Positions 3,293-59,094 of a stretch of DNA of 64,000 bases are shown here, in pieces. Where the stretch lies: assembly GCF_046105845.1 (NCBI RefSeq), contig NZ_CP151004.1, one strand, 5' to 3'. Position numbers and translations under genes: made by a program. This stretch comes from Escherichia coli. GTDB lineage: Bacteria; Pseudomonadota; Gammaproteobacteria; Enterobacterales; Enterobacteriaceae. Every line of letters begins with the position of its first letter. The stretch's first letter is position 1. The notes below the pieces were generated by a model that was not told the origin of the DNA, ran no database searches, and saw nothing but the letters and a program-made list of their open reading frames with translations.

Positions 3293-3440
3293 TCCTCTGA
3301 TTTACAAAAGACGCTAATTCGTCTTCCATAAACCATGACGATTAAGATTTATACATAATGCGCTGCATTGAGGAATTCCCTGAATGTGACGCAAATCACT
3401 TCAAAGAGTGAGCAACAGTCAGTATCATCATGTGAGTTAA

Positions 3441-3474
3441 ACCCTCGCCGCCTGACGGTGAGGGTTTTCTTTTG
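3441..3474 (+). terminator. Candidate rho-independent terminator in the rna-rnk spacer
   Basis: Imperfect hairpin accctcgccg / cggtgagggt followed by tttcttttg, about 150 nt downstream of the rna stop. Confidence 0.5.
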
Positions 3475-3521
3475 GGTATGTTTATCTGCGACACTCGCAG
3501 TACCGACGACATGGAGTAAAA

Positions 3522-7136: not shown

Positions 7137-7507
7137 CTATACTTCCTCCGTGTTTTCGATGAGATGTAAGGTAACCAATTTTTGCCGATTCGGCTAATGC
7201 GTTTCCATTATCAAATCGATAAGTTTTACCTTACAACCTTCGTAAGACAACTTTGTGAACTTTGCACCGCCAGCGGCGATAAAAAGTAAAATGGCCCCCT
7301 TTCCAGGTGACCGTGTAATCTGAACTACCCTTTGGTATCTTCAGCGCCTGCCTGCAGGCTGAGGTGTTGCCCTTACAAATGCAACAACGACATGGATTAC
7401 AACACCCTCATAAACAAAGGGCAATCACCTGATCTAAGCTCTTACCTATGACAGTGATAGGTTATGCCTTTTACTCGACTTTTGCACTGACTGAAAAGGA
7501 CAAATTA
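7137..7507. promoter_or_regulatory. Divergent ahpC / dsbG control region (OxyR-regulated promoters expected here)
   Basis: Intergenic region between the divergently oriented ahpC and dsbG; OxyR control of ahpCF and dsbG is established knowledge. The exact operator was not mapped from the sequence. Confidence 0.4.
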
Positions 7508-35789: not shown

Positions 35790-36410
35790 ATGAAAACTAC
35801 GCATACCTCCCTCCCCTTTGCAGGACATACGCTGCATTTTGTTGAGTTTGATCCGGCGAGTTTTCGCGAGCAGGATTTACTCTGGCTGCCACACTACGCA
35901 CAACTGCAACACGCTGGACGTAAACGTAAAACAGAGCATTTAGCTGGACGGATCGCTGCTGTTTATGCCTTGCGGGAATATGGCTATAAATATGTGCCCG
36001 CTATCGGCGAGCTACGCCAACCTGTGTGGCCTGCGGAGGTATACGGCAGTATTAGCCACTGCGGGACTACGGCATTAGCCGTGGTATCTCGTCAACCGAT
36101 TGGCATTGATATCGAAGAGATTTTCTCTGTACAAATCGCAAGAGAATTGACAGACAACATTATTACACCAGCAGAACACGAGCGACTCGCAGAATGCGGT
36201 TTAACCTTTTCTCTGGCGCTGACACTGGCATTTTCCGCCAAAGAGAGCGCATTTAAGGCAAGCAAGATACAGGCCGCTCAAGGTTTTCTGGATTATCAGA
36301 TAATTAGCTGGAATAAACAGCGGATCATCATTCGACTAGAGGATGAGCAGTTTGCTGTGCACTGGCATATAAAAGAAAAGATAGTCATAACGCTGTGCCA
36401 ACACGATTAA
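35790..36410 (+). CDS. entD: Phosphopantetheinyl transferase EntD
   Basis: ORF 35640..36410 trimmed to MKTTHTSLPFAGHTL (206 aa); the longer ORF would read through the REP elements. Confidence 0.92.
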   Translation: MKTTHTSLPFAGHTLHFVEFDPASFREQDLLWLPHYAQLQHAGRKRKTEHLAGRIAAVYALREYGYKYVPAIGELRQPVWPAEVYGSISHCGTTALAVVSRQPIGIDIEEIFSVQIARELTDNIITPAEHERLAECGLTFSLALTLAFSAKESAFKASKIQAAQGFLDYQIISWNKQRIIIRLEDEQFAVHWHIKEKIVITLCQHD

Positions 36411-36531
36411 TTGACAACTTCTGGTACGATTCGCCCGCAGCCATTGCTGACCGCGGGCGAAAGTGTAAAGCAGGTGCCTTACCATCCTGACCTGACAACC
36501 GGATATGCGGGGATTGCTCCCAACACAACGG

Positions 36532-36684
36532 CTACTTCTTCGGTTCGTAAGCGAGAACAGCCTTAAACTCAATATTACGTTCCTTCACCGTAAACTCACA
36601 CAGCGAGTCTCCGACCAGAAGCGTAAATCCCAGCACCGTTAAACACAGCACTATGACTGCCACAAGGGCATATTTCGTCAGCAT
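36532..36684 (-). CDS. hokE: Type I toxin Hok-family protein HokE, copy 1 (50 aa)
   Basis: [50 protein letters not shown]; Hok-family hallmarks (single TM, LCE and AYEP motifs); recognised as HokE. Confidence 0.9.
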
Positions 36685-36784
36685 GTTTATATTGCCTCCA
36701 TGCGAAGAAGGGACTACCATCCAAATTGTTCAGGTTTGGGTAGGTAGCCCCAGGGTTGATAGAAATATCGTCCTGGGGCTTCAT
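36596..36784 (-). CDS. mok-like overlapping reading frame (modulator of killing), copy 1
   Basis: 62-codon frame starting upstream of and overlapping hok in another frame, as in hok/mok/sok loci; GGAAAG Shine-Dalgarno upstream. Confidence 0.6.
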
Positions 36785-36790
36785 CTTTCC
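36727..36790 (+). ncRNA. sokE: Candidate Sok-type antisense RNA, copy 1 (boundaries approximate)
   Basis: Plus-strand promoter-like TTGCCT-17 nt-TACCAT at 36692..36720, then a single-stranded stretch and a hairpin ccccagg / cctgggg (36749..36779) with a U-rich tail, antisense to the mok start region. Predicted from sequence architecture only. Confidence 0.35.
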
Positions 36791-37035
36791 AGACCTCAGA
36801 GTTAACCTGAAACCGGAAAGCTTCAGGCACCCGCCGTTATCTTACCCTTCCTCAGCAAAATAGCTGTTTATTTATACAGTGAATCCTGTTTCGGACTTCT
36901 GTTGGCAAAACTGATCATTGCCCTTAAAACGACATCGCCCGCAGCCATTGCTGACCGCGGGCGAAAGTGTAAAACAGGTGCCTTACCACCCTGACCTGAC
37001 AACCGGATATGCGGGGATTACTCCCCGCACAACGG

Positions 37036-37188
37036 CTACTTCTTCGGTTCGTAAGCGAGAACAGCCTTAAACTCAATATTACGTTCCTTCACCGTAAACT
37101 CACACAGCGAGTCTCCGACCAGAAGCGTAAATCCCAGCACCGTCAAACACAGCACTATGACTGCCGCAAGGGCATATTTCGTCAGCAT
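37036..37188 (-). CDS. hokE: Type I toxin Hok-family protein HokE, copy 2 (50 aa, one V-to-A difference from copy 1)
   Basis: [50 protein letters not shown]; intact frame. Confidence 0.88.
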
Positions 37189-37288
37189 GTTTATATTGCC
37201 TCCATGCGAAGAAGGGACTACCATCCAAATTGTTTGGGTTTGGAGTGGCAGCCCCAGGGTTGATAGAAATATCGTCCTGGGGCTTCAT
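37100..37288 (-). CDS. mok-like overlapping reading frame, copy 2
   Basis: 62-codon frame overlapping hok copy 2; differs from copy 1 in its N-terminal part (GAATPNPNN versus GATYPNLNN). Confidence 0.55.
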
Positions 37289-37294
37289 CTTTCC
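37231..37294 (+). ncRNA. sokE: Candidate Sok-type antisense RNA, copy 2 (boundaries approximate)
   Basis: Same promoter-like element and hairpin as copy 1; the predicted 5-prime tail carries 5 substitutions relative to copy 1. Confidence 0.3.
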
Positions 37295-37622
37295 AGACCT
37301 CAGAGTTAACCTGAAACCGGAAAGCTTCAGGCACCCGCCGTTATCTTACCCTTCTTCAGCAAAATGGCTGTTTATTTATACAGTGAGTCCTGTTTCGGAC
37401 TTCTCAATCCTCATTTGATCAACTGAAGCTGAACCCGTTTTTTTTCTGCATGCCTCAATCGTCAAAATTCTTCGCCACCAGTCCGCACTGCCATAACTTG
37501 TCATATTGCAAAATGTAGCCAATTTGCTTCAGTCACCATCATCAAAAAAAGAAACATTCCAGAACTTCCGCATCTCGCCCAGTCGCTCCCACTTCTATAC
37601 TGAATAGAAAACGCCAACATAA

Positions 37623-38750
<1,128 letters not shown>

Positions 38751-58765: not shown

Positions 58766-58842
58766 GAAGAAAAAATGGCGCGCCCTGCAGGATTCGAACC
58801 TGCGGCCCACGACTTAGAAGGTCGTTGCTCTATCCAACTGAG
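58766..58842 (-). tRNA. argU: tRNA-Arg (anticodon UCU)
   Basis: Reverse complement reads GCGCCCTTAGCTCAGTTGGATAGAGCAACGACCTTCTAAGTCGTGGGCCGCAGGTTCGAATCCTGCAGGGCGCGCCA, a canonical cloverleaf with encoded CCA and anticodon TCT. Confidence 0.95.
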
Positions 58843-59094
58843 CTAAGGGCGCGTTGATACCGCAATGCGGTGTAATCGCGTGAATTATACGGTCAACCCT
58901 TGCTGAGTCAATGGCTTTTGATCTGGTTGCTGAACAAGTGAACGACCGCGTCTGATTTTCTGATTTATTTCGCTATAGCGGCAAACAAACGCACACCGCT
59001 GCGCGTCTGAATCAAGAAAACCCGTATTTTCATGTATCAAAGTACAATTTCCCGACCTAACGGAAAATTGTCCGATCCAATGAGACTGGTAACT

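Follow-up and report, generated by a model that had tools for sequence, protein, structure and literature searches.

Why should a chromosome keep two nearly identical toxin–antitoxin modules side by side, and does the antitoxin RNA of each act on its own toxin messenger or on both? The question is raised by a 64,000-nucleotide (nt) stretch of Escherichia coli DNA (contig NZ_CP151004.1 of assembly GCF_046105845.1; hereafter the window), in which entD (open reading frame (ORF) end at 36410) and ybdK (start at 37632) flank two 470-nt direct repeats that align without gaps at an offset of 504. Each repeat is a hokE/mok/sokE unit: the entD-proximal unit a (36431–36900) carries a leader of type I, the ybdK-proximal unit b (36935–37404) a leader of type II, and between them lies a 34-nt spacer (36901–36934) that is not repeated at this offset. 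The region is a tandem pair of complete, apparently intact type I toxin–antitoxin modules that belong to the chromosomal hokE family. The differences between them cluster most conspicuously in what is most likely the 5' leader of the antisense RNA Sok, and we lean towards the view that the two leader types insulate each Sok/hok pair from its neighbour in a manner that is partial, kinetic and asymmetric.

The ungapped comparison reveals 16 differences in 470 nt, at positions 36470, 36485, 36516, 36522, 36523, 36640, 36662, 36731, 36732, 36740, 36741, 36742, 36745, 36851, 36862 and 36883. Six of the 16 fall within the 15 nt of 36731–36745 (c/t, a/g, g/a, t/g, a/t and t/c). When 16 differences are placed in 470 nt by permutation, such a cluster has P = 0.0004, and the probability that 6 of the 16 fall in the pre-specified 20-nt Sok leader is 1.6e-5 (hypergeometric), so clustering in the Sok 5' tail goes beyond chance. 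Divergence between the window copies amounts to 6/20 (30%) in the leader versus 10/450 in the rest of the unit. An earlier note on this DNA had described the cluster but counted five differences in the first ~22 nt after the promoter, whereas its own strings show six; with this one correction to the count, the observation as a whole is confirmed. The note was also right that the hok coding sequence (CDS) contains only two differences, one of which (36640, Leu) is synonymous while the other (36662) changes Val8 to Ala. As for the substitutions that it saw in the N-terminal region of mok, the variable block does contain three residue differences (ATYPNLN in copy a, AATPNPN in copy b), but these are most likely by-products, because not even the reading frame of mok is conserved among hokE alleles.

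Does the variable block belong to Sok? Both units contain, on the plus strand, the promoter-like element TTGCCT-17-TACCAT that had been proposed to drive it (36692–36720, hexamers at 36692–36697 and 36715–36720, in copy a; 37196–37224, hexamers at 37196–37201 and 37219–37224, in copy b). The element is identical in the two copies and unchanged in all units and Escherichia species examined, and it is a weak match to the consensus (8 of 12 positions). A generic scan for sigma-70 promoters and terminators listed no promoter for Sok or hok, and a terminator for copy b only; the Sok element is missing from this list because the thresholds of the scan are too strict for hexamers that match at only 8 of 12 positions. 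In strain K-12, sokE (b4835) is annotated as an RNA of 60 nt, the first of which is the G of GTTCGGG; this G corresponds to window position 36728, 7 nt past TACCAT, and the annotation ends in a CUUCAUCUUU tract corresponding to 36788. Mapped in this way, Sok-a would be a plus-strand RNA of ~61 nt (36728–36788) with the 5' leader GUUCAGGUUUGGGUAGGUAG (36728–36747), and Sok-b, on the same basis, would extend over 37232–37292 with the leader GUUUGGGUUUGGAGUGGCAG (37232–37251). All six clustered differences then most likely lie in the first 18 nt of the antisense RNA, within Sok nt 4–18, an assignment drawn from annotation and homology. In minimum free energy (MFE) folds, the two window Soks and every population variant have nt 1–10 unpaired, followed by a conserved stem-loop; K-12 SokB and SokC likewise combine a variable leader with a conserved stem-loop. 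The promoter-like element, the folds and the K-12 annotation agree in pointing to a putative cis antisense RNA. In plasmid R1, a single-stranded 5' tail of this kind is described as the part of Sok that recognises a loop of hok mRNA after refolding (PMC1635323). Type I SokE and K-12 SokC begin with the same six nucleotides (GUUCAG; 36728–36733 in SokE, and GUUCAGCAUAU...; locus L070, 653–658, in SokC), and cross-talk at the nucleation step between type I SokE and hokC, or between SokC and type I hokE, is conceivable from the sequence.

The target of the leader lies on the opposite strand. Each hok mRNA would be a minus-strand transcript of ~402 nt, running in copy a (36431–36832) from a 5' end at GGGUGCCU to a terminator hairpin at 36431–36460 and in copy b (36935–37336) to a hairpin at 36935–36964, with the same fold; here the 5' end is equated with the start of an Rfam model and both mRNA ends are inferred. 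On the mRNA, the leader block forms the 5' arm and loop of a hairpin at 36710–36751 (minus strand) that consists of a 9-bp and a 5-bp helix and a 9-nt loop, CCUGAACAA (36726–36734). The corresponding hairpin of hok mRNA b (37214–37255, minus strand) has the loop CCCAAACAA (37230–37238). Two of the six window differences fall in the loop (CCUGAACAA versus CCCAAACAA), three in the internal loop, and one turns an A-U into a G-U pair, and none of them breaks the predicted hairpin. Across 10 distinct haplotypes, 98.6% of the cells of its 14 pairs are paired and two pairs show compensatory A-U to G-C changes on both sides, compared with at most 62% paired in control hairpins whose partners were slid by 1–3 columns.

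In the full-length mRNAs of both copies, MFE folding predicts that nt 1–8 pair with nt 354–361 (tac-fbi), an end-to-end lock of the sort that hok mRNAs typically have, that the 3' hairpin forms, and that nt 88–103 of the target region pair with nt 338–352. The 3' element responsible comprises, on the minus strand of copy a (36472–36495), fbi at 36472–36479, which pairs with the mRNA 5' end, and 36481–36495, which pairs with the Sok-target region; in copy b it occupies 36976–36999 (minus strand) with the same predicted pairings. This pairing of 3' end and target agrees with the model for R1, where Sok and the 3' end are competitors for the region of mok initiation (PMC1635323). According to these models, the leader block is constrained by two intramolecular pairings, and its pairing with Sok comes automatically because Sok is encoded in cis. 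When 3'-truncated mRNAs were folded, the target hairpin appeared in copy b only, with 55–70 nt removed, and never cleanly in copy a, so refolding is not demonstrated by the MFE predictions.

The same pairings raise the possibility that the block tunes each module in cis, by altering the masking by the 3' end, the stability of the hairpin, or the synthesis or decay of Sok, and that the copies differ in activation threshold rather than in partner. The block takes part in three alternative pairings and is the initially transcribed sequence of Sok. The predicted stability of the target hairpin is -19.3 kcal/mol for type I and -23.4 kcal/mol for type II. The 3' end pairing also differs in the MFE folds: copy a gains three pairs at the loop, and copy b gains two at the internal loop, where the T/C difference at 36485, outside the cluster, provides two extra pairs with the internal-loop variant of copy b. 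Variants at 36485 and 36486 are associated with leader type (ACTC is found in 10 of 13 type IV units and in 2 of 64 other units). Cis tuning leaves unexplained, however, why the differences are concentrated in the nucleating leader and loop nucleotides and why the same type is almost never found twice in one array (see below), and we consider it unlikely as the explanation of the block, although it is compatible with insulation and the two could act together.

How well would each Sok recognise the other mRNA? For the 7-nt leader on the loop, the predicted energies are -10.6 kcal/mol for Sok-a on hok-a and -10.3 kcal/mol for Sok-b on hok-b, versus -2.5 kcal/mol for Sok-a on hok-b, where C·A and A·C mismatches intervene, and -7.1 kcal/mol for Sok-b on hok-a. 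For 22-nt tails the cognate values are -42.8 and -44.4 kcal/mol, and the non-cognate ones about -26 kcal/mol. The nucleus formed by leader and loop is predicted to be much stronger between cognate partners, and discrimination is predicted to be asymmetric, with Sok-b keeping a G-U route to hok-a.

The mechanism that we envisage starts from a minus-strand hok mRNA of ~400 nt that would be locked by pairing between its 5' and 3' ends, the 3' end also masking the Sok-target region. Trimming of the 3' end would, by analogy with plasmid R1, allow the target region to refold into the hairpin. The ~60-nt plus-strand Sok would then nucleate with its 10-nt free 5' leader on the hairpin loop, after which the Sok body would cover the mok start and block the translation of mok and hence of hok. 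Each Sok matches its own mRNA perfectly because it is encoded in cis; on the mRNA of the neighbour it would encounter 4 mismatches and 2 wobbles within its first 18 nt. Sok-a would be expected to recognise hok-b poorly, Sok-b would retain a weakened G-U route to hok-a, and the two modules would be controlled largely independently.

The earlier comparison had treated the divergence as having arisen between these two copies, which is not the case: types I and II are widespread alleles. A sample of 27 units, taken from 14 E. coli loci, has a nucleotide diversity (pi) of 0.20 in the Sok leader versus 0.02–0.06 in the other parts of the unit (0.064 in the upstream region and 0.029 in the hok CDS), and the leader is ~7 times as diverse as the remainder. 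When metagenome and species-representative loci were added, giving 77 full units, the leaders fell into at least six discrete types: type I in 33 units, type III in 14, type IV in 13, type II in 9, type K in 6 and type IIIb in 2. The hypervariability of this stretch extends across Escherichia, and four of the types (IV, K, III and IIIb) are shared with E. albertii, E. whittamii and other species of the genus. Types I and II are found elsewhere as single copies and in either position of an array, and their divergence is therefore allelic and extends beyond this genome. The remainder of each unit is a mosaic, in which an array mate is no closer than units of other genomes. All four gametes with respect to 'type I / not I' are present at sites 23–66 nt away on each side of the leader, which makes the leader an island in a recombining background.

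Arrays themselves are common. A query spanning the copy–copy junction was found in ~2,388 of 5,426 complete E. coli genomes (~44%), three-copy hokE arrays also exist, an E. whittamii array combines types K and III, and that of O157:H7 has types IV and III. Exact leader types were sought in the same complete genomes with 40-mers for which a single mismatch in the leader leaves no 28-nt seed. Type I was found in 2393 genomes (2399 places), type K in 2225 (2235 places), type IVa in 1108 (1114 places), type III in 1058 (1060 places) and type II in 429 (429 places). Same-type duplicates are present in at most ~24 genomes, against ~2,388 arrays (no more than ~1%), while random pairing would give ~20–25% same-type arrays. 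Homogenisation of the leader is rare although polymorphisms of its flanks are common to both copies.

These figures invite a stronger proposal, namely that the leader/loop variants are 'specificity types', six or more in number, which predate the splits between Escherichia species and have been kept distinct by selection, the arrays being assemblies of mutually orthogonal modules. We regard this extension as rather unlikely. The rarity of same-type arrays is no proof of selection because the genomes share ancestry.

Several points weigh against insulation of the two pairs. By using two G-U pairs, Sok-b is able to form 7 contiguous base pairs with the hok-a loop. Of the ~61 nt of Sok, 42 are identical between the copies, and the full non-cognate duplexes still reach about -59 kcal/mol net; any discrimination must therefore be kinetic, and alternative nucleation through the conserved stem-loops could lead to cross-repression in such models. 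The U-turn motif YUNR, present in the loops of type I (CUGA) and type IV (CUCA), is lacking in those of types II, K and III, which contain no U; if the U-turn matters as reported for R1, binding rates should differ between types. Among 27 sampled arrays, including those on metagenome contigs, hetero-type adjacent pairs number 24 of 29 against 77% expected, with no excess over random (P = 0.66). All five same-type arrays in this sample come from metagenome contigs: in L043 the two units are 100% identical, L023 and L057 have III/III with 6 differences elsewhere, and the remaining two are L035 and L049. Tandem repeats can be wrongly joined in such assemblies, and these five are probably chimeras of that kind but might be real. 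The rarity of same-type arrays in complete genomes, which are not phylogenetically independent, could have been inherited from a few old hetero-type arrays and not selected. Finally, chromosomal hok loci tested by others gave no post-segregational killing, as summarised in bioRxiv 10.1101/2025.08.07.668861.

Much of this would also be expected from relaxed constraint combined with history. Mutations in cis change Sok and its target together, so unpaired positions would drift, both Soks would repress both mRNAs, and the clustering would have no function. All six differences are indeed at unpaired or wobble-tolerant positions, the stable non-cognate duplexes and the random frequency of hetero-type pairs fit such drift, and hetero-type arrays can be inherited by descent, as arrays occur in two Escherichia species. 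Drift does not readily account, on the other hand, for a leader divergence 3–13 times that of neighbouring non-coding, largely unconstrained stretches, for leader types that are discrete and common to several species while their flanks are shuffled within 23–66 nt, or for the scarcity of same-type duplicates in finished genomes despite the flank polymorphisms that the copies have in common. This account is possible, and we doubt it. Insulation of each pair is the reading that we continue to favour. The sequence pattern fits a specificity determinant, and the suggestion of the earlier note that each Sok has become specific for its own hok mRNA is thereby supported in part, by prediction: the leader–loop nucleus favours cognate partners and the full duplex does not exclude non-cognate ones. 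Such specificity is plausible, strengthened by the population data, and unproven.

It could also be argued that the units are decaying, non-functional relics, as has been proposed for the hok loci of K-12, and that the cluster marks a mutational hotspot, such as a quasi-palindrome at the start of transcription. IS186/IS421 elements in the terminator hairpin of K-12 hokE and of several lineages, a mok frame that varies among alleles, and the failed killing tests cited above are in keeping with decay. However, the hok and mok ORFs of both window units are intact, the Sok promoter-like element and stem-loop are the same in each, and the predicted tac-fbi pairing is retained; compensatory changes maintain the target hairpin, the hok CDS has low diversity, and the K-12 HokE protein is described as toxic on expression (10.1101/2025.08.07.668861). 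Decay is, in our judgement, highly improbable. Templated mutation within a quasi-palindrome was considered as the origin of the GTAGGT/AGTGGC block and rejected on inspection, as neither variant copies the opposite hairpin arm. A mobile origin, or an arms race with plasmid- or phage-borne hok/sok, was also rejected, since no phage match and no true plasmid match was found at the DNA level. Most of the 'plasmid' matches are to megabase-size records or to ones of 113–280 kb, 11 of 12 of them predicted non-mobilizable, and these look like chromosome-sized records or records with chromosomal DNA.

Both toxin genes encode 50 amino acids (aa) on the minus strand, hokE of copy a at 36532–36684 and that of copy b, with V8A relative to a, at 37036–37188. 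The Pfam domain HOK_GEF (PF01848) covers positions 1–42 of 42 of the model in the Hok ORF of copy a (E = 2.5e-8), the NCBIfam Hok family models match the hokE ORFs of the window below their curated cut-offs, and equivalent ORFs of related genomes are named 'toxin HokE' in RefSeq. In both copies, codons 45–47 read GCU UAC GAA (36541–36549 and 37045–37053, minus strand), so that Tyr46 is a UAC followed by G; recoding of Tyr to Cys at Hok position 46 by A-to-I editing has been described for hokC, hokD and hokE (summarised in 10.1101/2025.08.07.668861). The mok-like ORFs, of 62 codons each, overlap the hok start in another frame at 36596–36784 (copy a) and 37100–37288 (copy b; T14A, Y15T and L18P relative to a), both on the minus strand. 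In the alignment of the 77 units (locus L002, 1823–2078, among them), types I and II, which have a G at 36770, share this 62-codon overlapping ORF. In types K (K-12) and IV, without that G, the mok AUG shares the reading frame of hok and would give an 83-aa, N-terminally extended Hok, and types III and IIIb have a 22-codon mok ORF that stops ahead of hok. The K-12 annotation includes mokA, mokB and mokC in the regions compared, with no mokE in the hokE region.

The Rfam family RF01794 matches both units over its full length on the minus strand, at 36676–36832 with 84.1 bits and at 37180–37336 with 80.3 bits (gathering score 59). Although named 'sok antitoxin', it matches the sense strand of the hok mRNA, from the presumed mRNA 5' end (GGGUGCCUGA) to the hok AUG, so the family models the 5' untranslated region of hok and not the Sok RNA itself. 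Inspection by eye gave no convincing placement for the hok promoter. On the mRNA strand, the terminator hairpin of copy b is followed by a T-run (TGTCGTTTTA) and that of copy a by ATCGTACCAG; given this difference, 3' end formation of the two hok mRNAs may differ. In K-12 and several clinical lineages, hokE units carry IS186/IS421 at or beside their GC-rich terminator hairpin, in some cases to either side of the unit (L002, 460–1804; L016, L021, L022), L022 also has an ISEc53 insertion, and the hairpin appears from these sequences to be a recurrent insertion target. On the plus strand, over Sok and antisense to hok (36653–36805 and 37157–37309), PGAP annotates 'hypothetical protein' ORFs or pseudogenes of ~89 aa, often frameshifted, in the RefSeq loci L001–L020; such calls, made over the antisense RNA, are very likely spurious. 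To the left of the array, entD is replaced by a pair of SDR-family oxidoreductase genes in some E. coli lineages (L009, L010 and L017; locus positions 1–1500), which places the hokE array at a variable junction. Elsewhere in the window, Rfam matches at 3368–3476, 7281–7374 and 58779–58852 comprise the rnk leader (124.9 bits), STnc70 and one tRNA; the STnc70 match, of 44.1 bits and thus just over its gathering score of 40, lacks a large internal part of the model.

Hok/sok loci are plentiful on enterobacterial chromosomes, and the hokE array is present in nearly half of the sequenced E. coli. Were the leader types orthogonal, each copy would be an independent switch and not a redundant one, which would explain the persistence of duplicated type I modules, and the types would provide a natural minimal set of variants, differing by 2–9 nt, with which to measure how antisense RNAs discriminate among near-identical targets. 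Should specificity types exist, one chromosomal site would hold several independently triggered toxins, in the manner of plasmid incompatibility groups but non-mobile. For antisense strategies directed at Sok, such as those discussed in PMC1635323, a single oligomer would not reach every leader type. Without orthogonality, the finding is an ordinary one, the region being no more than the stretch of a cis-antisense pair that is under the least constraint.

The chromosomal hok/sok loci of E. coli, hokE/sokE among them, were reportedly described by Pedersen and Gerdes in 1999. The K-12 hokE/sokE locus (b4415/b4835) occupies the same site between entD and ybdK, with ~96% DNA identity and with the same toxin, Sok promoter, stem-loop and target-hairpin architecture. 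It differs from the window in having one copy, truncated at its 3' end by IS186, in place of two complete ones, leader type K (GUUCGGG...AGUGGC) in place of types I and II, and a mok AUG in frame with hok in place of the 62-codon overlapping ORF. The hok/sok (parB) system of plasmid R1 has the same layout of hok, mok and Sok, with the tail and stem-loop of Sok acting on the loop of the refolded mRNA (PMC1635323). Pairing of the 5' and 3' ends of the full-length mRNA, known for R1, is predicted likewise for the window copies, both of which are matched by the R1-based Rfam family. In contrast to R1, the window family is chromosomal and non-mobile, with a toxin of 50 aa, and the steps of processing, refolding and RNase III cleavage are assumed here by analogy.

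As a tandem array, the locus is one of the Hok 'islets' of Escalera-Maurer et al. (bioRxiv 10.1101/2025.08.07.668861), according to whom 10% of Hok genes, and 13.5% of chromosomal Escherichia hok genes, lie within 2 kb of another hok, an arrangement ascribed to local duplication. That study analyses peptides and locations, and a search of its text by terms turned up no passage that examines Sok leaders, target loops or the cross-talk inside islets. Nor did our literature search find an analysis of Sok leaders within hok arrays; the key hok papers of 1999 and 2000 lay outside this search, and hokE leader variation in ECOR strains has possibly been described earlier.

The closest parallels for discrimination between near-identical antitoxins come from other type I systems. 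The Sib RNAs of E. coli are near-identical cis antitoxins, some of them in tandem, whose variable recognition domains restrict each to its cognate ibs mRNA despite extensive shared complementarity (Han et al. 2010, PMC2943612). Unlike Sok, Sib belongs to an unrelated toxin and RNA family, covers the entire ibs ORF and uses two recognition domains, and its discrimination is demonstrated by experiment, whereas that of the window Sok/hok pairs is predicted. In the tandem type I duplicate zorO-orzO / zorP-orzP of strain O157:H7, a 3-nt variable region, V1, in the 5' end of the small RNA (sRNA) selects the paralogue to be repressed (Wen et al. 2014, PMC3919570). Orz is divergently encoded and has 18–19 nt of complementarity, while Sok is fully antisense with ~60 nt, for which reason discrimination by Sok would have to be kinetic. 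As in Sib/Ibs and Orz/Zor, the differences between the window paralogues are concentrated in the target-recognition region of the sRNA. The locus, the toxin, the tandem arrangement (annotated in RefSeq), the Hok islets and the principle of paralogue discrimination are already known, and arrays such as the one in the window are best seen as a further, predicted example of that known principle in a known locus.

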